64,000 bases of DNA, from assembly GCF_003018235.1 (NCBI RefSeq), contig NZ_CP027439.1; one strand, given 5' to 3'. The notes under the pieces were generated by a model that saw only the letters and a list, made by a program, of their open reading frames with translations, was not told the origin of the DNA and searched no databases. Both the position numbers and the translations under genes were made by a program. Origin of the DNA: Escherichia coli (GTDB taxonomy: Bacteria; Pseudomonadota; Gammaproteobacteria; Enterobacterales; Enterobacteriaceae). Below, one piece after another: positions 3,068 to 64,000 of this stretch (the first letter of the stretch is position 1; each line of letters opens with the position of its first letter).

Positions 3068-3838
3068 ATGAAGGTTTTAATTGTCGGTGCGACCGGCAGT
3101 ATTGGTCGTCATGTTGTAGAAATGTCGATAGAAATGGGACATCAATCGAAAGCCCTGGTCCGTTCCCCAAAAAAAAGAAAATTGTTGCCACAGGGAATTG
3201 AGATTGTTTATGGCGACGTCTCTGTCCCGGAAACATTGACCGGCATTGGAGATGATATCGATGCCGTTATTTTCACCCTGGGATCAGATGGATTAGGCCG
3301 CATTGGTGCTCGGGCAGTGGACTATGGCGGGGTGAAAAATATTCTTCAACAACTTAAGCATCGGCGAGTCAGAGTTGCGCTGATGACTGCCATCGGCGTG
3401 ACAGAAAGAGAAGGTTCGTATAACCGCCAGACGGAAGCGCATGACTGGAAACGTCGTGCGGAACGCCTGGTTCGTGCCAGCGGTCACCCCTATACCATCG
3501 TCAGGCCTGGTTGGTTTGATTACAACAAACCGAATGAACAACAAATCGTCATGTTACAGGGAGACAGACGTCATTCAGGCACACCGATCGATGGCGTGAT
3601 TTCCCGTAAACAAATAGCCAGAGTACTGGTTAGCGCATTAACAGACGATGATGCTAAGAATAAAACGCTTGAACTCATTGCCGAAAAAGGGAAAGAGCAA
3701 CAGAATCTCACCCCACTTTTCTCAGCCCTGCAACAGGACCGCGCAGATAAAAACGATGGTATTCATGATTTAAACAACATGCCCATGGACTCAGAGCCTG
3801 AGTGCGTTGTTCGTGATCTTAATGCAATGACGCAATAA
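3068..3838 (+). CDS. NAD(P)H-binding oxidoreductase, NmrA-like/atypical SDR
   Basis: Rossmann motif MKVLIVGATGSIGRHVV at N-terminus; start chosen at internal ATG of ORF 3050..3838. Confidence 0.75.
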   Translation: MKVLIVGATGSIGRHVVEMSIEMGHQSKALVRSPKKRKLLPQGIEIVYGDVSVPETLTGIGDDIDAVIFTLGSDGLGRIGARAVDYGGVKNILQQLKHRRVRVALMTAIGVTEREGSYNRQTEAHDWKRRAERLVRASGHPYTIVRPGWFDYNKPNEQQIVMLQGDRRHSGTPIDGVISRKQIARVLVSALTDDDAKNKTLELIAEKGKEQQNLTPLFSALQQDRADKNDGIHDLNNMPMDSEPECVVRDLNAMTQ

Positions 3839-14108: not shown

Positions 14109-15839
<1,731 letters not shown>

Positions 15840-21941: not shown

Positions 21942-22189
21942 AGGTAGCTATCCAGATCTACATCGTGCAGCTTCTGGTTGCTGCGTTCGGCGACCAGATT
22001 AACCAGTTCCTGATCGTCTAGGGCATCGAGCATCTTTTCATACAGTTCTGCGGGGACACAGTAAAAGGCGGGCTGGTTACGGTTCAGAATCGCGACTGGG
22101 TAACCATCACCGGCACTGACTGTCGCCATCGGGTTTTTTTTCAGTTCGCTGACACTGGCGCTAGTGTCACTCAGAATAATGTGGGGCAT
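21938..22189 (-). CDS. Phd/YefM/StbD-family antitoxin
   Basis: 83 aa, overlaps toxin start by 4 bp; classic antitoxin-toxin order. Confidence 0.8.
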   Translation of the reverse strand: MPHIILSDTSASVSELKKNPMATVSAGDGYPVAILNRNQPAFYCVPAELYEKMLDALDDQELVNLVAERSNQKLHDVDLDSYL

Positions 22190-22271
22190 AGGGCACCTTT
22201 AGAGACTATTTAACAGGTCTTTATAGTGTTCTAAAAAAGACCTCTTAACAAGTCTTTTTGTCATTTTACTC

Positions 22272-22316
22272 AATGTGCCGTAAAGCCCCGCCCTTCAGGG
22301 CGAGGAGGATGTCAAA
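22272..22316 (+). repeat. 45-bp direct repeat with hairpin, copy 1 (second copy at 26028..26072)
   Basis: AATGTGCCGTAAAGCCCCGCCCTTCAGGGCGAGGAGGATGTCAAA. Confidence 0.7.
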
Positions 22317-22412
22317 TAATAGGACCCCGAAAGGATTAGTAATGTGGCGTCTTTGCTACACAGGTGCTTTTGTAATATGTTGTATAGCGTACTCACTACA
22401 CAGGAGATGTGT

Positions 22413-22952
22413 ATGGCATTGTCACAGATCAGCGTTCGTATTGATGATGAACTCAAACAACGCACGGATGAAAAAATGAAACTGCTGAGAACCAACCCCA
22501 CGCAGGCCATTACGTTGCTCTATCAGTATATTGCTGAAAATGGGAAACTTCCCTTTACTGTCAGCACCCAACTCTTCACTTCAGAGGATTACACCCAAAA
22601 ATTAATCACCACAGTCAGATCTATTTATGAATACTGGCGCGCGCTTTCTGAGACATCAGCAACAACCAGAACGAAAAGTGGAATGGCCTATTCAATGGCA
22701 ATGGCAGCACATGTTTCGAAGCTGCACAGCGATCTGATACACAACTGCGGCACCTTGAGTGGTGAAGAAGTTGCCTCATTAATGATTGTTATGGAGGACA
22801 TTCTTTCTACGCCGCCATCTTTTTATCGCGGAGAAGCGCCCGATCAGGTGTTTCAGGATAAATTAAACGCTGCTGACCAAACTATTCTGATGATTGAAAA
22901 ATGTCATGGTATGAATGTTCAACGCGGGGAAAATTTTTACGCTCTCAGATGA
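22413..22952 (+). CDS. DinJ/RelB-like ribbon-helix-helix N-terminus with ~130-aa C-terminal extension
   Basis: N-terminal MALSQISVRIDDELKQRTDEKMKLLRTNPTQAITLLYQYIAENGKLPF resembles DinJ antitoxins; C-terminal domain unrecognised. Confidence 0.5.
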   Translation: MALSQISVRIDDELKQRTDEKMKLLRTNPTQAITLLYQYIAENGKLPFTVSTQLFTSEDYTQKLITTVRSIYEYWRALSETSATTRTKSGMAYSMAMAAHVSKLHSDLIHNCGTLSGEEVASLMIVMEDILSTPPSFYRGEAPDQVFQDKLNAADQTILMIEKCHGMNVQRGENFYALR

Positions 22953-22999
22953 ATGCACTGAATATGCAACAGCCCGTAAGGGTTTTTTTTGTGTACGCA

Positions 23000-23022
23000 G
23001 GACAGTTAATCCTAGTGTCCAG
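23000..23022 (+). repeat. Conserved inter-cassette site, copy 8
   Basis: GGACAGTTAATCCTAGTGTCCAG. Confidence 0.5.
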
Positions 23023-23085
23023 TGTGGAGCGGAAGTTACGTAACATTTGACGTAAGTATTTTTGGGATACTTATGAACTGAAATA

Positions 23086-23105
23086 AGATTTCGCATGCGA
23101 AATCT
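23086..23105. promoter_or_regulatory. parS-like palindrome 1
   Basis: AGATTTCGCATGCGAAATCT perfect palindrome. Confidence 0.6.
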
Positions 23106-23306
23106 ATTGCGTATCATTATTGATACTCTATGATTTCTCTGTATACTGTTCATATTGTCATGAACGTATGGCAACAAACGCAGTAGTAGATAGCTGCTTC
23201 TGCATCTTGGCGCAACGCCTGACTCACAGGAGTGTGTATGAAATACCGCAATGAATTCATATCATTACAGCAATACTTTTTCAATCCGCGCCGCCCCCTC
23301 TCAAAC

Positions 23307-23322
23307 ATTTCGCATGCGAAAT
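23307..23322. promoter_or_regulatory. parS-like palindrome 2 (parA operator position)
   Basis: ATTTCGCATGCGAAAT 15 bp upstream of the parA start. Confidence 0.6.
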
Positions 23323-23337
23323 CTTAAGGACTGTTAC

Positions 23338-24204
23338 ATGACACTGAAAATTGGACCTATCGGAAAATTAATCGTTATATGTAGCCAGAAGGGCGGAATC
23401 GTAAAATCGCAGTCATCCAGCGAAATAGCATATGATCTTCGAGAATCAGGTTTTCGTGTGCTTGAAATTGATATGGACTGGACTACTGGTCTGACAGAGA
23501 GAGCTTTCCCCGATAGCTTACCCTATGAGATAGAGCGCGAACCTTTAAGTAACAGTTTTACACCCGGCGAAGCGAATACATATCAGCTTTTCTTCCCGGA
23601 CACTGAAGTTCGACCGATTGAGCTTCCTGGCGGGCGTTTTTTTATTGGCGCTACCAGTGAGCTTAATGAAATTAACTACCGCAACAGCGACTGTATGTTC
23701 GACTTCAGAGACCGTATTGAAGAACTGAAGAAACAGTTTGATTTTATTATTGCTGATTCAGCGCCATCATATTCAAACGTTATGATCGCCGCACATATGT
23801 CAGCTGACTATCTTCTGATCCCTACTCTGTTGGAGAAGCAGGCCCGAAATGCAGTTGGTAAACAGCTTACTTACATGCAAAAAATAAAACGGAACTATAA
23901 TCCATCGTTGCAGTTTATGGGCACTTATGTGACCCAAACACCGGTAAAAAATTATAAAAAGCCGCTTAAAGAAGGGTATTTGGGACCTATTGATACACTG
24001 AATCTGAATCTACTCATTGAGATCCTTCAGGGAAAAGGATATTCCGAAGAGTACATTCTTGCCTATATATCATTTGTACCTGCTGCTGCCAAAGAAGCGA
24101 TAGAACTTGGCCTCTCATTTGATGAATATGATCCTAAGTGTCTTCCTGCAATTCAGTATAAAGAGCTTACCCAGAAAATTATTCAGATCGCAGGAGATAA
24201 ATAA
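23338..24204 (+). CDS. parA: ParA-family partition ATPase
   Basis: Deviant Walker A (ICSQKGGIVKSQ); overlaps parB start (TAATG). Confidence 0.8.
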   Translation: MTLKIGPIGKLIVICSQKGGIVKSQSSSEIAYDLRESGFRVLEIDMDWTTGLTERAFPDSLPYEIEREPLSNSFTPGEANTYQLFFPDTEVRPIELPGGRFFIGATSELNEINYRNSDCMFDFRDRIEELKKQFDFIIADSAPSYSNVMIAAHMSADYLLIPTLLEKQARNAVGKQLTYMQKIKRNYNPSLQFMGTYVTQTPVKNYKKPLKEGYLGPIDTLNLNLLIEILQGKGYSEEYILAYISFVPAAAKEAIELGLSFDEYDPKCLPAIQYKELTQKIIQIAGDK

Positions 24205-25235
24205 TGGCCAAGAAACCGTTTATGAAACGACTCAAGGCGCAGCAGGAAATGAAAAAAAACTCTGCTGTTGTCTCTGATATTGAACAAGTCATTGCAAATA
24301 AACAGCCAGATGAGAAGAGCCATGACGTATCTGCGCACCAGATTTTGACAGATATTTCCCGCCCGGTTCTTGAACCTGATGGACAGATAATCCGCGTCGA
24401 TATAAACCTGGTTTATGCTGAGGAACAAGTACGACCTGAAGAAGATTTCGATGAAGAGGTTATCGATGGTATGGCAGATACTTTCGAAACCATAGGGATG
24501 CTTACCCCGCCTCGTTGTTATCCCCGCGACAGACGTGGATACCAGATATGGTTAGGAGAAACACGAGTTCGTACTGCACGTAAACGTGGTGATACCCATA
24601 TTGATATTTATGTCGGTAAACCACCACGAGAAAGAAAAGAACGAATCATTGGTCAGCTCATTGAAAACCTTCAGCAATCGGGTTTAAAACCATTAGCGAC
24701 TGCAAGATCGTTCTATGAACTTAAGCATCACTTCAATATGACGGGTGAACAGATCGCAAAAACGATGGGTAAACCAACCTCATTTGTCAGTAAACATCTT
24801 CGTCTCATTGATGCTCCAGAGAATGTTACCGCCCTTCTCCGGGATAAAGTGACATCCGATATTGATTTGGCTTACACACTAATACAGGTAAATGAAAGGG
24901 CTCCTGAAGAAGCCGAGAAGCTTATTGCAGCTGCGCGGGAATCTGGTATTTCACGCGCGCAAGTTAAAGCTGTTCTTGATGAGGTTAAGAACAAAAGCAA
25001 CCGTGAGATTTCGCATGCGAAATCTAAAGCTCAGAATAAAAGGCCATCCAAGTCTCTTAATAACAATTCAGATGTAAAAAGCTGGCAGGTAGTTGTCGAG
25101 ATTGACGGTCAGCAGGGAGTAATAATGACCGACCGTGCGCCAGAGGAAGATGGCTATGTGTGGGTTAAATTAGATATTGGTGAAATATCCGTCGAGGCTT
25201 CAGAGGTTCGTGTCAAGGGAATGCGGTCTTTGTGA
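24204..25235 (+). CDS. parB: ParB-family partition protein
   Basis: 343 aa downstream of parA; ParB/Spo0J-like HTH region (GEQIAKTMGKPTSFVSKHLRL). Confidence 0.75.
   Translation: MAKKPFMKRLKAQQEMKKNSAVVSDIEQVIANKQPDEKSHDVSAHQILTDISRPVLEPDGQIIRVDINLVYAEEQVRPEEDFDEEVIDGMADTFETIGMLTPPRCYPRDRRGYQIWLGETRVRTARKRGDTHIDIYVGKPPRERKERIIGQLIENLQQSGLKPLATARSFYELKHHFNMTGEQIAKTMGKPTSFVSKHLRLIDAPENVTALLRDKVTSDIDLAYTLIQVNERAPEEAEKLIAAARESGISRAQVKAVLDEVKNKSNREISHAKSKAQNKRPSKSLNNNSDVKSWQVVVEIDGQQGVIMTDRAPEEDGYVWVKLDIGEISVEASEVRVKGMRSL
25006..25025. promoter_or_regulatory. parS-like palindrome 3 (inside parB)
   Basis: AGATTTCGCATGCGAAATCT. Confidence 0.55.
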
Positions 25236-25672
25236 TGAAATCAACCCCATTCACTGAAATGGCCACTGCATTCCGTGGCCAAATTGTCCGTCTCTGGGCG
25301 CTTCGATATCCCGGAACTCAATCCGAAGCAGCTGCTGCATTAACAGAAGCTGCTATCAATCTTGGATACGTTACAAGAAGTAGACCTGTGCCTGGAGCAG
25401 CCTTATTATCATGGTTATCGAATCCCGCTGAAACGCCTCTGTGGGCGGCTCAGACCGCATTAACGATGATGCTCAAGATTGGCTGGAAGCCAGAGAGTAA
25501 TCAAGAATGGTGTGGGATGTCGGCACTGATATTCAGAGCTAATCGTAAACTTTCACTTGAACTGTTAGTTGCATCCTTGCCTGATAGTATAGACAGGCAA
25601 ACTGCTACAGGATGGTTTGTGGCTGCAATAGAAGAAGATGCCCACTACCGTTATAACAGGAAATTCAGATGA
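25232..25672 (+). CDS. Hypothetical protein
   Basis: 146-aa ORF overlapping parB stop. Confidence 0.5.
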   Translation: MMKSTPFTEMATAFRGQIVRLWALRYPGTQSEAAAALTEAAINLGYVTRSRPVPGAALLSWLSNPAETPLWAAQTALTMMLKIGWKPESNQEWCGMSALIFRANRKLSLELLVASLPDSIDRQTATGWFVAAIEEDAHYRYNRKFR

Positions 25673-25992
25673 CCTTTCAGGAGCTTGATGCTTGTATTGC
25701 TGGCTCTGGTAGGCGTTCTATCGCTTCAGCGTTAATCGCTTTTATTCTCGATGCGTTTGATGATGGACAGGACGGAGTTGATCTTGATTCTTTCCAGAGC
25801 CAGATGCGCTTCGTTCGCAACAATGTAACAACCGTAGCCAACTATCTGCAGCGACAGGGGGTTCTCCATATACTGTATTACCGTGATGGTGCCGCAGAAC
25901 GTCAGTATGAGACCGTTAATAATTATGGACGATGGGCAAAACAGCACTATCGTCCTTCTCAGGCACTTATTCAGTTGCACCGCCGTAATTAA
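25669..25992 (+). CDS. Hypothetical protein
   Basis: 107-aa ORF, overlapping start/stop with the upstream ORF. Confidence 0.5.
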   Translation: MTFQELDACIAGSGRRSIASALIAFILDAFDDGQDGVDLDSFQSQMRFVRNNVTTVANYLQRQGVLHILYYRDGAAERQYETVNNYGRWAKQHYRPSQALIQLHRRN

Positions 25993-25994
25993 AG

Positions 25995-26020
25995 CAAAGA
26001 TTTCGCATGCGAAATCTTTG
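25995..26020. promoter_or_regulatory. parS-like palindrome 4 (26-bp perfect palindrome)
   Basis: CAAAGATTTCGCATGCGAAATCTTTG. Confidence 0.6.
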
Positions 26021-26027
26021 CTTACCT

Positions 26028-26072
26028 AATGTGCCATAAAGCCCCGTCCTTCTGGACGGGGAGGATGTCAAA
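26028..26072 (+). repeat. 45-bp direct repeat with hairpin, copy 2
   Basis: AATGTGCCATAAAGCCCCGTCCTTCTGGACGGGGAGGATGTCAAA; stem shows compensatory changes relative to copy 1. Confidence 0.7.
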
Positions 26073-26074
26073 GG

Positions 26075-27349
26075 TCATCGTATCATTGCCACCGGGAGGT
26101 CAGTCCAGCGTGTCGTATATGCTGGTGACAACATTTCGCGCTTCATTTGCCACTCAGGAGCTATGCCTCGCCCCGCAAACCACACTTTCCCAAGTCCAGA
26201 ATGGTTAATACCGTCCACGACTTTCATCAATTGATTACTGTTGCTTCGGGGCAGAGTATCATCAAACAGATTCAACTGTGAAACTCCGGTCGGCGTAAAA
26301 TCGTTCAGCATGCAGCCTGCCCTTACATAGCGGTGGCCATTCACCCAGATCCTGTCCAGGGCTTTGACGGCAGCGGCAATGATGTCCGGTGTATCCTGCG
26401 TGGGGATGAGCAGCTTTTCACTGGCCAGATTACCGTAGTAGGGCTCATTTACGGCAAACGGCGATGTTTTCACAAATACGACAATATGCCTGCAGAACTG
26501 CCGTTCGCCGCGCAGCTTTTCCGCAGCACGCTCAGCGTACTGACAGACTGCCTGACGCAGGGCTTCATACGTTGTGATACGCTCCCCAAAAGACCTGCTG
26601 CAGACAATCTGCTGTTTCGGCGGGGGAGCTTCTTCAAGCGAAATACAGCTTTCTCCGTTGAGTTCCCGGACCGTTCTCTCCAGTACAACGTTGAAATTCT
26701 TCCGGATAAATACGGGGTTCGCGCGCGCCAGCTGCAGTGCAGTGGTGATGCCCATTGTGCTTAGTTTCCTGGATATCCTGCTGCCAACTCCCCAGATTTC
26801 TTCCACCGGCTGCAGTGAAAGCAGTTTCTCCGTTCGTTTCGGATTGTGTGATGTCAGGGCAAGCACACCACCGAATTGTGGCCATTCCTTGGACGCCCAT
26901 TGCGCGCTTTTAGCCAGCGTTTTGGTTGGCCCCATCCCGACACCTATTGTCAGCCCCGTTCCTGAGCGCACGTGTTCGCGTAGCTGCCGCCCAAAGTCCT
27001 CATAGTCGATGCAGTTGTCTATACCACGGATATCGAGAAACATCTCATCGATGCTGTACTGTTCCACACGTGGCGCCAGCTCTTCTAGGTGAGTCATCAC
27101 CCTGTTAGACATGGACGCGTACAGCTCGTAATTGCTTGAGAACACGATGATCTGCTCAGAGAATTCCGCCTTCTTCAGTTGAAACCACGGCACTCCCATT
27201 TTGATACCCAGCAACTTCGCTTCTTTTGAACGGGCGATAACGCAACCATCATTGTTACTGAGTACCACAACCGGCTTGTTTCGCAAATCAGGTCGAAATA
27301 CTTTCTCGCAGCTGGCATAAAATGAATTCACATCAGCGAGCGCAAACAT
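26075..27349 (-). CDS. umuC: Y-family translesion DNA polymerase V catalytic subunit (UmuC/MucB-type)
   Basis: 424 aa; N-terminal [41 protein letters not shown]. Confidence 0.9.
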
Positions 27350-27901: not shown

Positions 27902-27974
27902 GAACCGGTGCATAACCCTGTGAGTTGATATCCGCTCTGCTCTGAAGGACAGGGTTTTTCGGCGGATTAGGTAA

Positions 27975-28220
27975 AGTCTACTGTATGCGACATTTTGATT
28001 TAGTTTTTTCCACTGGCTAGATCCAATAAATATATCCATATAGACCCTTAGAGATCCTAGAAGATCCCCGATCGCTGCAGGCCGCTCCGTTACTGGTCTC
28101 ATAGATGATTAATGTCTACTGTGTGCTACATAATGTCTATTGTATGCGACATAATATCTATTGAGTGCTACAAAAGGTCTACTATGTGCTACCATAAGGT
28201 CTACTGTGAGCTACTAAGAT
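27975..28220. repeat. RepFIB-type upstream iteron cluster
   Basis: Repeated ~21-bp units TCTACTGTGTGCTACATAA / TCTATTGTATGCGACATAA / TCTATTGAGTGCTACAAAA / TCTACTATGTGCTACCATAA / TCTACTGTGAGCTACTAAG plus nearby GATC sites. Confidence 0.8.
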
Positions 28221-28251: not shown

Positions 28252-29139
28252 ATGTCTAATAAAATCAATGAACAATTCCTGAATATCAAGGAAATTAACA
28301 AGCGAACGGGAGAAGAGCTCACGCTTATATCCACAAGTGAGTCCAGTGTTCAGGTAGTTCCGTTGATGCGCCTTGGTGTTTTTGTCCCGACTCTTAAAGG
28401 GACCGATAAAGCTAAAATTACCCGCAATACCGTTGATGCTTCGAAAGATTTTAATACGCTTTCGCTCTACAGCTCTGAGGGATTCGAGAAGGTCATTATT
28501 AGTGGTCCCCGACTTGATATGGACACTGATTTTAAAGTTTGGGTTGGCATAATTTCCGTTCTGACAGACAGTGATCATCCGATCACCAAAGAAGGAAAAA
28601 TCGTGATACCTTTCAGCGAATTTGCGCATCGCTGCGGATTCCCACGGGGGAGGATGAAACAGGAACTTCGCACTCGCCTGAAAGACTCGATAAAGAAGAT
28701 TATGTCCACAATTGTCGAATTTTCGAAAGACTCCGGGAAACCAACAGAGAAGACGCAGATGGTGCAACTCATGGGGGAGTCCACAATAGACATTGGTAAT
28801 GATCTTGTTCTGCTTACACCCAGTATGTCTTTAAAAGATCTTTACGCCAGTGAGTATAAAGTCCTGCTCAAGCTAAAAGCGCTAAAAAGCCTGGCTCGTA
28901 AGGAGTCTGCTCAGGCTCTGTATCTCTATTTGGAAGGTCTGCCCACAAATCCTGCTCCAGTTAGTATTAAGCGTTTTCGCGAACGTCTCAACCTTACATC
29001 CAGAACTGCACTGCAGAATGCCACCATTAAGAAAGCTCTAAAGCAGCTGGAAGAAATTGGTTATCTGGAATATCAGGAAATGAGGAGTGGCAGGGACATC
29101 GCGTTTAATATCATCAAACGTAATCCGAAGCTTCAGTAA
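28252..29139 (+). CDS. repA: Replication initiator RepA of a RepFIB-type (iteron) replicon
   Basis: 295 aa; PVALMRLGVFVP-like N-terminus, ITGPRLDMDTDFKVW and NPKL C-terminus match RepFIB RepA. Confidence 0.85.
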   Translation: MSNKINEQFLNIKEINKRTGEELTLISTSESSVQVVPLMRLGVFVPTLKGTDKAKITRNTVDASKDFNTLSLYSSEGFEKVIISGPRLDMDTDFKVWVGIISVLTDSDHPITKEGKIVIPFSEFAHRCGFPRGRMKQELRTRLKDSIKKIMSTIVEFSKDSGKPTEKTQMVQLMGESTIDIGNDLVLLTPSMSLKDLYASEYKVLLKLKALKSLARKESAQALYLYLEGLPTNPAPVSIKRFRERLNLTSRTALQNATIKKALKQLEEIGYLEYQEMRSGRDIAFNIIKRNPKLQ

Positions 29140-31395: not shown

Positions 31396-31907
31396 ATGTT
31401 CTTTAAAAATCAGGATTTATTTCAGCCTCCGGCAATACGCATTTATTTGTTCTGTCAGTCATCCGGCTGACAGGTAATGAGAACGCAGGAACAGAAGGAG
31501 GAAAACACCGGAAAGCGTCAGATGCAGATATGAAAAAAGCAGGTCAGGGACCTGCTTAATCCATGCCGCAGAGACTGCACGAACAGTTTTTGCGGCTCCA
31601 GTCAATCGTCATAAGAGGCTAAATTATGACAATAAGTATTGTTTCACCTTCCGCAGCGGCTGTAAAGCCCCGCCGTCATCCCCGTTTCAGACGCGAAGAC
31701 ATCCCCGCGCCGGAAATTGACCCCGTGCTGAAAGCCTTCGGGCGACACATAGCCCGGAGTTTTCACCGGGGGCGTGGTGCACACATCCCCGCCATGAAAA
31801 ACACGGCCTTCGGGCAGGTGCTCCGCACACTCGAACTGAAACGCGCTTTTAACTGATGAGGTGAGCCGCCCCGCGAGGGGCGGCAACAGACGGAAGGAGA
31901 ACATTTT

Positions 31908-38785: not shown

Positions 38786-39006
38786 TGCGGCAACAATCAC
38801 ACAGATTACCCGTAAACAGCCTGAATGAGCGGGTTATTTTCAGGAAAAGTGAGTGTGGTCAGCGTGCAGGGATATGGGCTATGATGTGCCCGGCGCTTGA
38901 GGCTTTCTGCCTCATGACGTGAAGGTGGTTTGTTGCCGTGTTGTGTGGCAGAAAGAAGATAGCCCCGTAGTAAGTTAATTTTCATTAACCACCACGAGGC
39001 ATCCCT

Positions 39007-39219
39007 ATGTCTAGTCCACATCAGGATAGCCTCTTACCGCGCTTTGCGCAAGGAGAAGAAGGCCATGAAACTACCACGAAGTTCCCTTGTCTGGTGTGTG
39101 TTGATCGTGTGTCTCACACTGTTGATATTCACTTATCTGACACGAAAATCGCTGTGCGAGATTCGTTACAGAGACGGACACAGGGAGGTGGCGGCTTTCA
39201 TGGCTTACGAATCCGGTAA
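39007..39219 (+). CDS. mok: Mok, overlapping leader reading frame of the hok/flm locus
   Basis: 70-aa frame overlapping hok in another frame, as in hok/sok-type loci. Confidence 0.6.
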
Positions 39220-42923: not shown

Positions 42924-43034
42924 AAGAAATTTGACTTCGTTCAAATATCAGAGTTTTTATGATTTAAAAGGGTGACAGTACGAAAGATAATTAGTATATT
43001 AATTACGTGGTTAATGCCACGTTAAAATTTGAAT

Positions 43035-43113
43035 TTGAAAATCGCCGATGCAGGGAGTTCACGTCTCCCTGCATCGACTGTCCATAGAATCCTTTGTGAG
43101 GAGGTTCCTATGT
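43035..43113 (-). ncRNA. finP: FinP antisense RNA (approximate coordinates)
   Basis: Stable hairpin GATGCAGGGAG-N8-CTCCCTGCATC in the traJ leader; position matches F finP; ends not determinable. Confidence 0.4.
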
Positions 43114-43799
43114 ATCCGATGGATCGTATTCAACAAAAACATGCTCGTCAAATAGATCTGCTGGAAAATCTGACGGCAGTTATTCAGGATTATCCAAATC
43201 CAGCCTGTATCAGGGACGAAACTGGAAAATTTATTTTTTGCAATACGCTGTTTCATGAGTCATTTCTTACACAAGATCAAAGTGCTGAAAAATGGCTTCT
43301 GTCGCAGAGAGATTTTTGTGAATTGATCTCTGTCACAGAGATGGAAGCATACAGGAATGAGCATACGCATCTTAATCTTGTAGAGGATGTTTTTATTCAG
43401 AACAGATTCTGGACAATATCTATTCAGTCATTTCTTAATGGACACAGAAATATCATTCTGTGGCAATTTTATGATGCTGCTCATGTTCGTCATAAAGACA
43501 GTTATAATCAAAAAACGATTGTCAGTGATGATATCAGAAATATAATCAGAAGAATGAGTGATGATTCTTCTGTATCATCATATGTAAATGATGTCTTTTA
43601 CTTATATAGCACCGGAATCAGTCATAATGCTATAGCAAGAATATTAAACATATCCATCTCCACATCAAAGAAACACGCGTCTCTGATATGCGACTACTTC
43701 TCTGTTTCTAATAAAGATGAGTTAATCATCTTACTCTACAATAAAAAGTTTATTCATTATTTGTACGAGAAGGCTATGTGTATCATAAATACGCGTTAA
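43110..43799 (+). CDS. traJ: Transfer operon activator TraJ
   Basis: Start MYPMDRIQQKHARQIDLLENL with GAGG RBS; position between traM and traY. Confidence 0.85.
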   Translation: MYPMDRIQQKHARQIDLLENLTAVIQDYPNPACIRDETGKFIFCNTLFHESFLTQDQSAEKWLLSQRDFCELISVTEMEAYRNEHTHLNLVEDVFIQNRFWTISIQSFLNGHRNIILWQFYDAAHVRHKDSYNQKTIVSDDIRNIIRRMSDDSSVSSYVNDVFYLYSTGISHNAIARILNISISTSKKHASLICDYFSVSNKDELIILLYNKKFIHYLYEKAMCIINTR

Positions 43800-62082: not shown

Positions 62083-64000
62083 ATGAAGTTTATGTGATTG
62101 CCGGTGGTGAGTGGTTGCGGAATAACCTGAACGCCATTGCCGCTTTTATGGGAACCAGGACGTGGGATTCCATTGAAAAAATTGCGCTCACATTGTCTGT
62201 TCTCGCGGTGGCCGTGATGTGGGTACAGCGGCACAACGTGATGGATTTGCTGGGCTGGGTGGCCGTGTTTGTGCTTATCAGCCTGCTGGTTAATGTCCGC
62301 ACATCGGTGCAGATTATTGATAACAGTGACCTGGTCAAAGTTCACCGGGTGGATAATGTGCCGGTCGGACTGGCGATGCCACTTTCACTGACGACCCGTA
62401 TCGGGCATGCAATGGTGGCCAGTTACGAGATGATCTTCACGCAACCGGACAGTGTCACCTACAGCAAAACGGGGATGCTGTTTGGCGCAGAACTGGTATC
62501 AAAAAGCACCGACTTTTTGTCCCGGAATCCGGAAATCGCCAATCTTTTCCAGGATTATGTGCAGAACTGCGTGATGGGGGATATTTACCTGAACCACAAA
62601 TATACGCTGGAGGAGCTGATGGCCTCCGCTGATCCCTACACGCTGATTTTTTCCCGCCCCAGCCCGCTGCGGGGCGTTTATGACAGCAATAATAATTTCG
62701 TAACCTGTAAGGACGCTTCGGTTTCGCTGAAAGACAAGCTGAATCTGGACACACAGAGTGGCGGAAAAACCTGGCATTATTATGCCCAGCAGCTATTTGG
62801 CGGACGCCCTGATCCTAACCTGCTGTTCAGTACGCTGATTGGCGACAGTTACAGTTACTTCTATGGCTCAAGTAAATCAGCCAGCCAGATCATCCGCCAG
62901 AATGTCACCATCAATGCGCTGAAGGAGGGGATCACCAGTTATGCCGCACGTAATGGTGATTCGGCCAGCCTGGTGAATCTGGCCACCACATCATCGATGG
63001 AGAAGCAACGTCTGGCACATGTCTCCATCGGTCATGTGGCGATGCGGACACTGCCCATGACGCAGACCATCCTGACGGGGATCGCCATCGGTATTTTCCC
63101 GCTCCTGGTACTGGCGGCTGTCTTCAACAAACTGACGCTGTCCGTCCTGAAAGGCTATGTGTTTGCCCTGATGTGGTTGCAGTCATGGCCAATGTTGTAC
63201 GCCATTCTGAACAGCGCCATGACATTTTATGCAAAGCAGAATGGTGCACCGGTGGTGCTCTCGGAAATTTCACAGATACAGCTGAAATACTCCGATCTGG
63301 CTTCCACTGCCGGGTATCTTTCCATGATGATCCCGCCATTATCCTGGATGATGGTCAGGGGGCTCGGGGCAGGATTTTCCAGTGTGTACAGCCATTTCGC
63401 TTCCTCTGCTATCAGCCCGACCGCCAGTGCAGCAGGCAGTGTGGTTGACGGTAATTACTCCTACGGCAACATGCAGACGGAGAACGTTAACGGCTTCAGC
63501 TGGAGCACCAACAGCACCACGTCGTTTGGTCAGATGATGTACCAGACCGGCAGTGGCGCAACCGCCACACAGACCCGTGACGGTAATATGGTGATGGATG
63601 CAAGCGGAGCGATGTCCCGGTTACCGGTCGGCATCAATGCAACGCGTCAGATTGCGGCGGCACAACAGGAAATGGCCCGGGAAGCATCGAACAGAGCAGA
63701 AAGTGCCCTGCATGGGTTCAGCAGCAGTATTGCCAGTGCCTGGAACACGCTCAGTCAGTTTGGTTCTAACCGGGGGAGCAGTGATTCTGTCACCGGTGGT
63801 GCTGACAGCACGATGAGTGCTCAGGACTCCATGATGGCCAGCCGTATGCGCAGTGCAGTGGAAAGCTATGCGAAGGCGCATAATATCAGTAATGAGCAGG
63901 CGACTCAGGAACTGGCATCAACAAGTACCAGGCTATCTGGTGGAATGTATGCTGATGCTCATGCTGAATGGGGGGTTAAACCTAAAATTCTTGGTGTTGG
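62079..64000 (+). CDS. traG: Mating-pair stabilisation protein TraG, N-terminal part (3'-partial)
   Basis: GTG start overlapping traH stop; translation (M)NEVYVIAGGEWLRNNLNAIAAFMGTRTWDS... open to window end. Confidence 0.9.
   Translation, partial: MNEVYVIAGGEWLRNNLNAIAAFMGTRTWDSIEKIALTLSVLAVAVMWVQRHNVMDLLGWVAVFVLISLLVNVRTSVQIIDNSDLVKVHRVDNVPVGLAMPLSLTTRIGHAMVASYEMIFTQPDSVTYSKTGMLFGAELVSKSTDFLSRNPEIANLFQDYVQNCVMGDIYLNHKYTLEELMASADPYTLIFSRPSPLRGVYDSNNNFVTCKDASVSLKDKLNLDTQSGGKTWHYYAQQLFGGRPDPNLLFSTLIGDSYSYFYGSSKSASQIIRQNVTINALKEGITSYAARNGDSASLVNLATTSSMEKQRLAHVSIGHVAMRTLPMTQTILTGIAIGIFPLLVLAAVFNKLTLSVLKGYVFALMWLQSWPMLYAILNSAMTFYAKQNGAPVVLSEISQIQLKYSDLASTAGYLSMMIPPLSWMMVRGLGAGFSSVYSHFASSAISPTASAAGSVVDGNYSYGNMQTENVNGFSWSTNSTTSFGQMMYQTGSGATATQTRDGNMVMDASGAMSRLPVGINATRQIAAAQQEMAREASNRAESALHGFSSSIASAWNTLSQFGSNRGSSDSVTGGADSTMSAQDSMMASRMRSAVESYAKAHNISNEQATQELASTSTRLSGGMYADAHAEWGVKPKILGV

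Follow-up and report, generated by a model that had tools for sequence, protein, structure and literature searches.

The plasmid-borne E. coli DNA analysed here, a stretch of 64,000 nucleotides referred to as the window, carries two short, hairpin-forming repeats on either side of a DinJ-like gene, parA, parB and two ORFs. An earlier note had described this gene arrangement correctly and had suggested that the repeats are a structured RNA element or a module-boundary site, which raises the question of what these units are and where they come from. The copies are very probably terminal-only PATEs, that is, fused-end relics of an IS609-like insertion sequence of the IS200/IS605 family. Such transposon relics are already known, and the copies are not a new regulatory or boundary signal of the plasmid.

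Three copies of a 46-nt unit

The elements and their parts are located as follows, where fused left and right ends denote the interpretation developed below.

22266–22269, + strand: target TTAC of copy 1, the left cleavage/target site, outside the element proper (read from the sequence)
22270–22315, + strand: copy 1, 46-nt element read as fused left and right ends
22270–22281 and 22282–22285, + strand: spacer and guide AAAG of copy 1
22286–22305, + strand: hairpin of copy 1, CCCCGCCC TTCA GGGCGAGG, with one C·A mismatch
22306–22311 and 22312–22315, + strand: AGGATG and right cleavage site TCAA of copy 1
26022–26025, + strand: target tetranucleotide TTAC of copy 2, by the same guide/target rule as copy 1
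26026–26071, + strand: copy 2, 46-nt element read as fused left and right ends
26026–26037 and 26038–26041, + strand: spacer and guide AAAG of copy 2
26042–26061, + strand: hairpin of copy 2, perfect over 8 bp, CCCCGTCC TTCT GGACGGGG
26062–26067 and 26068–26071, + strand: AGGATG and TCAA of copy 2
27925–27975, − strand: copy 3, decayed, with TTAC at 27974–27971 and the element at 27970–27925
27958–27955, 27946–27943 and 27928–27925, − strand: guide position AAAA, loop TTCA and TCAA of copy 3
27954–27947 and 27942–27935, − strand: hairpin arms CCCTGTCC and GAGCAGAG of copy 3

The repeats had been placed at 22272 and 26028 in the same orientation, both of which are correct, and their match extends to 51 nt (22266–22316 against 26022–26072) with 86% identity. 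Within it, the 19-mer AATGTGCCRTAAAGCCCCG has exactly two occurrences in the 64 kb, where 0.05 would be expected, and none of 100 shuffles gave two. A third copy, overlooked in the earlier note, is located at 27925–27975 between umuD and the repB iterons. This copy is inverted and diverged, forming an inverted repeat with copy 2 (74% complementary), and is identical to copy 2 at 37 of 50 positions, whereas the window background and shuffles reach at most 26–29. An nhmmer profile built only from copies outside the window recovers exactly the three window copies, with copy 3 at E = 2.5e-4 and the next match at E = 0.25; this profile of independent short forms places copies 1 and 2 at E = 1.4e-15 and 3.1e-14, respectively. 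The copy number is low, at three per 64 kb, and copies 2 and 3 enclose umuDC, inverted relative to each other.

Copies 1 and 2 share a layout consisting of TTAC, 12 nt, AAAG, one 8-bp hairpin, 6 nt and TCAA, and in all three copies TCAA ends 10 nt past the hairpin foot. Copy 3 pairs TTAC with AAAA rather than AAAG, a mismatch consistent with its apparent decay. Each 46-nt unit lacks terminal inverted repeats and is too short for a transposase, and the flanks (GCTTAC^...^AGGTCA, where ^ marks the element border) show no target-site duplication. Moreover, the copies are gene-free and neither tnpA nor tnpB lies within the window; for tnpB, this was searched by tblastn with a single TnpB query, that of a Serratia element (L047).

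The perfect 8-bp stem claimed for copy 2 (CCCCGTCC/GGACGGGG) is indeed found, and the matching 6–7-bp stem claimed for copy 1 forms seven of the eight pairs, with one C·A mismatch on the + strand. The idea that paired changes preserve the structure holds for one compensatory stem position (C–G in copy 1, T–A in copy 2), whereas the second difference is uncompensated.

Relationship to IS200/IS605-family ends

The core of the repeat, CCCGnnnTTCnGnnCGnGGAGGATGTCAA, is the right end that insertion sequences of the IS200/IS605 family (IS1341-type) conserve, and in them it forms the 3' end of the TnpB guide-RNA scaffold. Far from occurring only at this locus, it is very widespread in other plasmids and genomes: at least 120 stretches in Halobacteria, Actinomycetes, Proteobacteria, Nitrospira and Planctomycetota match the core pattern, with many copies per genome, and the repeat has matches in 640 plasmid records as well as in 363 of the 5426 complete E. 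coli genomes, both counts including the right ends of full-length elements. In nearly all of the plasmid records listed, the 46-bp units are unannotated. Among the matches listed, the sequence 3' of ...GATGTCAA is never conserved, which therefore marks the element end, and the flank after TCAA is unrelated in all 124 of them. The core often lies 3' of a tnpB gene among these matches; 'long' copies follow an ORF of 380–640 aa, all three of the ORFs tested are RNA-guided TnpB (NF040570, E = 3e-59 to 5e-110), and one locus (L016) matches the IS1341 sense-overlapping RNA of Rfam (sot0042) at 195 bits.

The 5' half of the window copies is also present at the left ends of full-length elements. The left end of E. 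coli IS609 reads TTTAT^CCGGTGCGCCGTAAAA-CCCCGTCC... and its right end GGAT-CCACGTCCTTCAGGGCGTGG-AGGATGTCAA^, while the Serratia L047 left end reads TTTTATC^AGGTGCGCCGTAAAA-CCCCGTCCTTCAGGGAGGGG. IS609 and its Serratia plymuthica relative can be summarized by the left end (T)TTAT^C.GGTGCGCCGTAAAA-CCCCGTCCTTCAGGG.GGGG and the right end ...GGAT-CC(A/C)CGTCCTTCAGG(G/A)CG(T/G)GG-AGGATGTCAA^, and the window copies align to the former with their 5' half and to the latter with their 3' half. However, IS609, a member of the IS200/IS605 family, is about 1.75 kb long and contains two genes (tnpA and insQ/tnpB) and two palindromes, whereas the window copies retain one palindrome and none of the genes. A copy in an IncI2 plasmid (L002) has the left-end arm of IS609, CCCCGTCC, fused to the right-end arm, GGGCGTGG, a junction characteristic of deletion between the palindromes. 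To judge from these ends, the closest E. coli relative of the window copies is IS609. Nevertheless, IS609 itself is probably not the direct parent, because both it and the Serratia element use TTAT with AAAA, where copies 1 and 2 use TTAC with AAAG, and because its left-end spacer differs from theirs at several positions. No full-length parent was found whose left end is exactly the enterobacterial one (TTAC^C..ATGTGCCGTAAAG).

The mechanistic paradigm of the family is IS608 of Helicobacter pylori, with TTAC and AAAG on the left and TCAA located 10 nt 3' of the hairpin foot on the right (He et al. 2011, PMC3201880). The window copies follow this layout with both ends fused and show the same functional tetranucleotides, AAAG adjoining the hairpin foot on its 5' side, although TTAC lies 16 nt from the foot rather than 19 nt, there is a single hairpin without a right-end guide, and the hairpins share no nucleotide similarity.

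Across 73 family members, the hairpin is conserved and covaries: 87% of the stem cells pair, and 24 cells changed on both sides compared with 8.2 in shuffles, a value of 24 being reached by none of 500 shuffles. Guide and target covary as well in the short forms, where AAAG accompanies TTAC in 15 of 16, AAAA accompanies TTAT in 15 of 17 and CAAG accompanies TGAC in 21 of 27, whereas 31 of 33 long-form right ends lack such a target. The constraint on the hairpin is of transposon origin: in IS200/IS605 elements it is the subterminal palindrome and, within their TnpB guide RNA, the last stem. Very probably it is conserved and covaries because intact relatives need both recognition of the top strand by the Y1 transposase and the terminal stem of the guide RNA, and thus as a transposase-binding palindrome rather than as a terminator.

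Fused ends of this kind have been described in haloarchaea, in which 52-bp terminal-only PATEs derive from ISHwa23 and HqIRS46 through repeat-mediated loss of the core (Dyall-Smith et al. 2011, PMC3119063), and in which the RNA VNG_R0052 likewise joins a left end to a right end (Gomes-Filho et al. 2015, PMC4615843). SotRNAs, HgcC and fused left/right-end RNA have in common an 8-bp stem capped by a UUCA tetraloop (PMC4615843). Like haloarchaeal PATEs, the window copies are about 50 bp long, have no ORF, inverted terminal repeats or target duplication, and contain one palindrome, with an 8-bp stem and a TTCA loop, bordered 5' by part of the left end and 3' by the tail of the right end; a left tetranucleotide target is also shared, as would be an origin by deletion between subterminal palindromes. 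In haloarchaeal copies such as GTTAC^GGAGAATCGAGGAGAAAG-CCCCGCCCTTCAGGGCGGGG-AGGATGTCAA, hairpin and tail match those of the window nearly base for base. In contrast, the window copies have a different left-end spacer and a very low copy number, and are found on conjugative-type IncF plasmids of Enterobacteriaceae instead of haloarchaeal chromosomes. TnpB guide RNAs (omega-RNA/reRNA; sot0042 RF02656, HgcC RF00062) have in common with them the last stem-loop and the AGGA(U/G)GUCA tail, but not the rest of the scaffold or tnpB. REP/REPIN sequences, mobilised by RAYT, are likewise short intergenic hairpin repeats linked to the Y1 (HUH) transposase superfamily; however, they differ in consensus, carry a 5' GTAG tetranucleotide, occur in hundreds of chromosomal copies, usually in inverted pairs, and depend on a RAYT gene present in single copy, features that the window copies all lack. 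One Kistimonas genome contains many near-identical short copies with differing flanks.

Insertion, probable immobility and alternative explanations

In the proposed origin, what inserted as single-stranded DNA 3' of TTAC would have been the parent element or, possibly, the mini form. Everything between the near-identical subterminal palindromes would have been lost, tnpA and tnpB as well as the larger part of the guide-RNA scaffold, and the 46-nt form may either have inserted as such or have decayed in place from a full element. The surviving unit would then comprise the left-end spacer, the left guide AAAG pairing with TTAC, one hairpin corresponding by analogy to the TnpA-binding palindrome, and the tail AGGATG-TCAA, whose right cleavage site lies 10 nt away from the foot of the hairpin. 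Direct support comes from the homology to full-length element ends, the architecture and the lack of copy 2 at the corresponding site of related plasmids. The site of copy 2, flanked by the last parS-like palindrome on one side and the umuC stop codon on the other, is empty in E. coli p623213_2 and C. freundii MGH281, which lack about 46–50 bp exactly there, although the empty-site junction is not base-perfect, the flanks being approximately 85–88% identical. For copies 1 and 3, no empty site and no informative relatives were found, and direct evidence of insertion is confined to copy 2.

Each of the three copies marks a point at which homology to other plasmids begins or ends: the phd-side flank of copy 1 loses it at 22267 (query position 268), and the umuD side of copy 3 at 27929–27930, the TCAA edge. 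As a description, 'module-boundary site' is therefore apt, given also the related plasmids devoid of copy 2, but there is no evidence of a boundary or recombination function, and nothing shows that the copies caused the breaks. These breakpoints, the inverted pair around umuDC and the direct orientation of copies 1 and 2 on the same strand, as left and right ends require, each of the two retaining TTAC, AAAG, hairpin and TCAA, are what favours active movement, with the copies either as ends of a composite 'peel-and-paste' transposon or as recombination hot spots shuffling the dinJ-like/parAB and umuDC modules. Nevertheless, both forms of active module movement are very unlikely. The parAB-orf-orf module occurs without either element in more than 600 plasmids and p623213_2 has the same parAB–umuC junction minus copy 2, which is therefore a simple insertion and not a module edge. 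Moreover, 46 nt at 86% identity is a poor substrate for homologous recombination, intergenic junctions simply tolerate insertions, and the segment from copy 1 to copy 2 was not found at another TTAC in any second plasmid. The right-end guide is also absent, and its removal prevents a stable transpososome (He et al., PMC3201880). The relics themselves are probably immobile as well, since this guide (GAAT/GGAT in intact elements) is missing and neither tnpA nor tnpB is present in the window, although the multiple copies in Kistimonas and the strain-specific 52-bp copies in Haloquadratum (PMC3119063) hint that a short form may move.

It is scarcely likely that the copies act as functional RNA signals, whether terminator, attenuator, insulator or small RNA, for instance a guide RNA in trans for the chromosomal TnpB (InsQ). 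The copy 2 hairpin is stable (−22 kcal/mol, z = −2.6) and, on the − strand, follows the umuC stop codon immediately and precedes CTTTAT; the copy 3 hairpin is followed on its own + strand by TTTTT. However, a terminator scan made no call at any of the three copies, copy 1, set in a divergent promoter region, has no gene upstream whose transcription it could end, and plasmids without copy 2 retain an adjacent palindrome and T-run able to serve as terminator. The tails contain AGGATGTCAA without a T-run on the + strand and only CTTTAYGG on the − strand (copies 1 and 2). With no T-run directly after the hairpin and an empty scan, an intrinsic (Rho-independent) terminator was rejected. Thus, of the structured RNA element idea, the conserved and covarying hairpin stands, while its role as a plasmid terminator or attenuator does not. 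Regarding small RNAs, a haloarchaeal PATE RNA is expressed and its overexpression altered growth (PMC4615843), and IS609 insQ is carried by most E. coli genomes. Nevertheless, only about 30 nt are left of a scaffold of more than 100 nt, and the upstream sequence, a parS-like palindrome and ORF end at copy 2 and a promoter region at copy 1, resembles no scaffold. With Rfam HgcC, the alignment covers just the last stem and tail of both same-orientation copies, with scores of 32.2 and 25.2 bits against a threshold of 50. A functional TnpB guide RNA (omega-RNA) was likewise rejected, lacking the ~100–150 nt scaffold upstream of the terminal stem, which as a rule overlaps the 3' end of tnpB, and, by tblastn with one TnpB, a tnpB in the window.

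Remnants of hok/sok-type toxin–antitoxin leaders or Xer (dif/cer-like) sites are extremely improbable. A copy in pP136-4 (L005) sits behind a hok promoter with the initial ~57 nt of the hok mRNA, and in IncI2 plasmids a copy abuts hok/sok; however, these contexts are insertions at TTAC or ATAC beside or inside hok loci, and Rfam sok matches only the true locus at 38891–39067 and none of the three copies, even at E ≤ 10. Although GTGCCATAA and GGATGTCAAAT loosely resemble XerC and XerD arms, they would lie 23 nt apart and not 6–8. Both origins are refuted by the homology to IS ends, the same sequence being found at the ends of tnpB elements in archaea and Actinomycetes.

Significance of the probable fused-end relics

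The main value of identifying these units as IS200/IS605 relics lies in annotation, since 46-bp units of this kind may be misread as terminators, as hairpins with a regulatory role or as recombination sites, and fused IS609-like ends would account for the repeat in the plasmid records and E. coli genomes counted above. On this plasmid, the copies appear to be passive relics without a role in partition, SOS mutagenesis or replication. A bearing on an open question of plasmid biology would follow only from the improbable shuffling of modules: it is most doubtful that fused-end mini-elements drive plasmid mosaicism, either through single-strand excision and insertion of the enclosed DNA by TnpA or as crossover points during conjugative single-strand transfer, but this would explain why all three lie exactly at homology breakpoints. 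As relics, the elements offer an easy way to trace former IS200/IS605 activity on conjugative plasmids, whose single-stranded stage is exploited by these transposons. Moreover, the near-identity of hairpin and tail from haloarchaea to enterobacteria reflects a tight constraint imposed by TnpA and TnpB on this end.

Three copies of a hairpin element in the window

The direct repeat described in the earlier note is present at both sites in the same orientation, and a decayed relative lies further downstream:

Copy 1: 22266-22316, + strand, direct repeat with copy 2 (51 nt, 86% identity)
Copy 2: 26022-26072, + strand, direct repeat with copy 1 (51 nt, 86% identity)
Copy 3, decayed: 27925-27975, inverted, between umuD and the repB iterons

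The 19-mer on the 5' side of copies 1 and 2 occurs exactly twice in the 64 kb, against 0.05 expected, and none of 100 shuffles contained two. Copy 3 shares 37 of 50 positions with copy 2, compared with 26 for the best unrelated window site and no more than 29 in 30 shuffles. Moreover, a profile HMM built from copies outside the window only recovered copies 1, 2, and 3 with E-values of 1.4e-15, 3.1e-14, and 2.5e-4, respectively, and no other window site below 0.25. The sequence GTAAAGCCCCGCC at 31658-31676 corresponds to the left-end guide and the start of the hairpin arm, with the rest of the element absent (nhmmer E 0.25), and is probably a chance match. The stem of copy 2 is perfect over 8 bp, as had been claimed, and closes on a 4-nt loop, while the matching stem of copy 1 carries one C.A mismatch. 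The proposal that paired changes preserve the structure holds for one position, altered on both sides (C-G to T-A), and does not hold for a second difference, which is uncompensated. Over 22100-26300, the window is 99.7% identical to the E. coli O55:H7 plasmid pDEC5B-4 (IncFIA/FIC).

Distribution and relationship to IS609

The element is not confined to this window, since a search with 71 nt from around copy 2 hit 640 plasmid records, among them IncI2 mcr-1, pESI-like Salmonella, Klebsiella, Pantoea, and Arsenophonus plasmids, with the annotation "none" in nearly all. Alignment of five plasmid copies with those of the window delimits a discrete unit, TTAC(C)..ATG.GCCGTAAAG-CCCCGTCC-TTCA-GGGCGGGG-AGGATGTCAA, both flanks of which are unrelated. 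A scan of one genome per prokaryotic species with the core pattern CCCGNNNTTCNGNNCGNGGAGRATGTCAA gave at least 124 matches on at least 120 stretches of DNA; those listed include Halobacteria, Actinomycetes, Alpha-, Beta-, Gamma-, and Deltaproteobacteria, Nitrospira, Planctomycetota, and others. The core is often multicopy (>30 loci in one Kistimonas MAG, four contigs in a Frankia), and many matches lie at contig ends. The sequence 3' of ...GATGTCAA is unrelated in all 124 matches listed and, therefore, the core was taken as the end of a mobile element. A literature search with the raw sequence GGAGGATGTCAA returned primer matches alone.

Two classes can be distinguished among the core matches. 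In front of long copies (...GGAAT-CCCCG...) lies an ORF of 380-640 aa that ends ~45 nt before the element end, and all three such ORFs tested encode the RNA-guided endonuclease TnpB (NF040570; E-values: Serratia 5e-110, Natrialba 3e-59, Arthrobacter 2e-64). At the Natrialba locus, the Rfam model sot0042 scores 195 bits with a match that ends within the motif. This model represents the sense-overlapping transcript of IS1341-type tnpB, now named omega-RNA. The Rfam model HgcC gave sub-threshold matches at the Serratia and Sulfuritalea right ends and at copies 1 and 2, its alignment to the window being limited to the last stem and tail (CccCGcccUUuAgggCGggGAGGAGGUCA). An 8-bp stem with a UUCA tetraloop is the right-end motif common to sotRNAs, HgcC, and a PATE-derived RNA (Gomes-Filho et al. 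2015, PMC4615843). The sub-threshold matches to HgcC and sot0042 are thus not GC-hairpin noise, as a first reading had it, and pointed to the correct identity. The guide-RNA scaffold exceeds 100 nt and only its last stem remains in the window copies, so the window element does not qualify as a functional guide RNA.

Short copies, the type found in the window, contain no ORF, start at T(T/G)A(C/T), and resemble in their 5' half the left end of full-length elements. This end reads TTTTATC/AGGTGCGCCGTAAAA-CCCCGTCCTTCAGGGAGGGG-ATATAAGG (slash, element edge) in a Serratia plymuthica element with divergent tnpA and tnpB and GGTTAC/GGAGAATCAAGGAGAAAG-hairpin in the Natrialba element; three further loci (L041, L010, and L124) have left ends of the same behaviour. 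The Serratia element is ~80% identical to IS609 (tnpA and insQ/tnpB), which occurs at >=80% coverage in 4858 of 5426 complete E. coli genomes. As read from K-12 BW25113 and from a copy splitting a TetR gene in strain 675SK2, IS609 begins with TTTAT/CCGGTGCGCCGTAAAA-CCCCGTCCTTCAGGGCGGGG-ATATA.GG and ends with GGAT-CCACGTCCTTCAGGGCGTGG-AGGATGTCAA/. The first ~28 nt of the window copies align to this left end and the last ~22 nt to the right end. The tnpA gene of IS609 is annotated as a pseudogene in both copies inspected (BW25113, between ydcL and ydcO, and 675SK2), with an internal stop in BW25113, which makes mobilization of IS609-type ends in trans doubtful in such hosts.

The clearest fusion is the IncI2 copy, whose left arm CCCCGTCC is the IS609 left-end arm and whose right arm GGGCGTGG is the right-end arm, giving a chimeric, mismatched hairpin. 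A deletion between two near-identical palindromes would generate exactly such a fused, chimeric copy, and the same process has been described in Haloquadratum, where the 1500-bp ISHwa23 and the PATE (palindrome-associated transposable element) HqIRS46 collapse to 52-bp "terminal-only" PATEs (Dyall-Smith et al. 2011, PMC3119063). No full-length parent with the exact left end TTAC/C..ATGTGCCGTAAAG was found.

Several other copies deserve mention. Besides ~ten long, tnpB-type right ends, the Kistimonas sp. bin40 MAG (L086-L117) contains over 25 almost identical short forms, TGAC/CCAGTGCGCGGCAAG-hairpin-AGGATGTCAA, in unrelated surroundings, so that either the short form is mobile there or core deletion is very frequent. 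In a palindromic variant, TTGACATCCT-hairpin-AGGATGTCAA, a right-end tail stands on both sides, in inverted form (Nitrosomonas, L015 3368-3412; Shimwellia, L028; the Kistimonas MAG, L095). The Nitrosomonas example follows a umuC-like ORF at a distance of 46 nt, echoing copy 2 right after umuC, an association that may be a coincidence.

Functional anatomy and insertion sites

IS608 TnpA cuts the top strand at two sites: on the 3' side of TTAC, located 19 nt 5' of the left palindrome, and on the 3' side of TCAA, located 10 nt 3' of the right palindrome. Recognition of each site relies on its pairing with a guide of 4 nt that directly precedes the hairpin foot; on the left, this guide is AAAG (PMC3201880). 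Copies 1 and 2 read TTAC, 12 nt, AAAG, hairpin, AGGATG, TCAA, and thus share these tetranucleotides with IS608, with the TCAA end 10 nt from the foot in both. Among distinct short forms, the target in the flank can be predicted from the guide (AAAG with TTAC in 15 of 16, AAAA with TTAT in 15 of 17, CAAG with TGAC in 21 of 27); long-form right ends (guide GAAT) lack such a target in 31 of 33. Since the target lies outside the element, this covariation is attributable to TnpA-type insertion only. As regards the strand used, the IS200/IS605 family favours the template of the lagging strand or the single strand that is transferred.

The covariance analysis that had been suggested also shows a hairpin that covaries. 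Over 73 distinct sequences, 87% of stem cells pair, against 37-58% with the 3' partner slid by 1-3 columns, and 24 cells are changed on both sides, against 8.2 in shuffles (0/500 reach 24); the outer pairs are fixed by the search pattern and only the inner ones are informative. One pair occurs as U-G (22), C-G (18), G-C (15), and U-A (6). The frequent T.G at this pair, which would be C.A on the opposite strand, points to folding of the TTAC...TCAA strand, i.e., the transposon top strand and guide-RNA sense strand.

E. coli p623213_2 and C. freundii MGH281 share the parAB-orf-orf/umuC junction at 85-88% identity and lack ~46-50 bp exactly at the copy 2 site, which is bounded by the last parS-like palindrome and the stop codon of umuC. 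On the phd/relE side of copy 1, homology to other plasmids stops at 22267, within TTAC, and on the umuD side of copy 3, it stops at 27929-27930, the TCAA edge; no relatives sharing both flanks of either copy were found. The near-identical plasmid pE105-3 (L130, NZ_CP072314, 1827-8620) is 100% identical to the window in copies 2 and 3, carries an IS3-family insertion in place of umuC, and has other sequence replacing copy 1 and the 5' end of the dinJ-like gene; considered as an empty site for copy 1, it was rejected, as its breakpoint lies instead within the dinJ-like gene. From these alignments, all three copies coincide with mosaic junctions, with simple insertion evident for copy 2 alone. 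Thus, the "module-boundary" proposal captures the position of the copies but not the origin of copy 2. In another reading, same-strand pairs of the element would serve as transposon ends, or as crossover points at which plasmid modules are shuffled. This reading is very improbable, given that the parAB module is common on plasmids that lack the elements, that copy 2 arose by simple insertion, and that the copies have no right-end guide.

A perfect 20-bp palindrome, AGATTTCGCATGCGAAATCT, occurs four times, twice upstream of parA (23086-23105, 23305-23324), once in the 3' part of parB (25006-25025), and once after two small ORFs (25998-26017), the last being kept in p623213_2 and MGH281. ParB probably binds these palindromes as parS-like centromere sites, which mark the limits of the partition module better than do the transposon relics. 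Shortly before the DinJ-like gene (ATG 22414), GCGTCTTTGCTACACAGG at 22347-22364 recurs as GCGTACTCACTACACAGG at 22387-22404, in direct orientation and at a distance of 40 bp. The two may form an operator pair for the DinJ-like protein, an antitoxin-like regulator whose gene has no toxin gene next to it. Iterons of 21-22 bp (consensus ~CATAATGTCTACTGTGTGCTAC), five in tandem and one outlier (28108-28216 and 27972-27993), precede a repB-family initiator gene (28252-29139), and the TTAC target of copy 3 adjoins the outlying iteron.

Role on the plasmid

No tnpB was matched in the window at E < 5 (tblastn, Serratia TnpB query). The right-end guide (GAAT/GGAT of intact right ends) is absent from the window copies, and in IS608 its removal prevents a stable transpososome (PMC3201880). 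The terminator role once suggested was not borne out: there is no terminator-type tail, a terminator scan made no call at the copies, and the element does not qualify as an intrinsic terminator. Plasmids without copy 2 retain, after umuC, the neighbouring palindrome with a T-run behind it. A minus-strand sigma-70/sigma-54 promoter (TTGACA...; TGGCAC) was discarded, given 25-27 nt to any -10-like hexamer and no call there by a promoter scan, and a Xer/dif-like site, with weak arm resemblance and a central region of 23 nt, was abandoned once IS homology emerged.

Two contexts had prompted a further candidate, a hok/sok leader or mini-Sok remnant. In E. coli pP136-4 (L005, NZ_CP080227, 2960-3280), the mini-element lies within a hok leader, preceded by the hok promoter and by ~57 nt that resemble hok mRNA and end in GGTTTATTAC. 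A group II intron (Rfam group-II-D1D4-3, 3110-3274) interrupts this copy 3 nt short of its end, GGAGGATGT/GTGCGCCC, an arrangement reminiscent of the targeting of hairpins by introns and other small mobile repeats. In the IncI2 mcr-1 plasmid pXDL-MCR-1.18 (L002, 2868-3046), the chimeric copy is directly upstream of hok/sok in opposite orientation, and most of the ~60-kb plasmids listed have it at a similar position in the record. Both are insertions beside or within hok loci; Rfam sok has no match at the window copies, and the element does not qualify as a hok/sok locus. At gathering level, the Rfam matches in other parts of the window represent the usual features of F-like plasmids:

14650-14772, isrC
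31534-31631, AS-pc01
38891-39067, sok (hok/sok locus)
43005-43116, traJ 5' UTR/FinP
62798-62883, AS-traG

Judged by sequence, the element has every structural feature expected of a terminal-only PATE of the IS200/IS605 family, and copy 2 is also present or absent at an otherwise conserved site among related plasmids. Fused-end PATEs are already published for haloarchaea, and a description on enterobacterial plasmids was not found in the literature; PATE-like elements have been noted in Geobacillus (PMC10055086), and bacterial counterparts of fused-end PATEs were predicted by Gomes-Filho et al. (PMC4615843). Given large near-identical families with differing flanks (Kistimonas, Haloquadratum), the short form may be mobilized in trans. 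The copies are IS609-like relics with high confidence. Since they have no tnpB match, no right-end guide, a single scaffold stem, and no terminator tail, they are read, somewhat less firmly, as passive relics that are probably inert and immobile and, most likely, serve no function for the plasmid.
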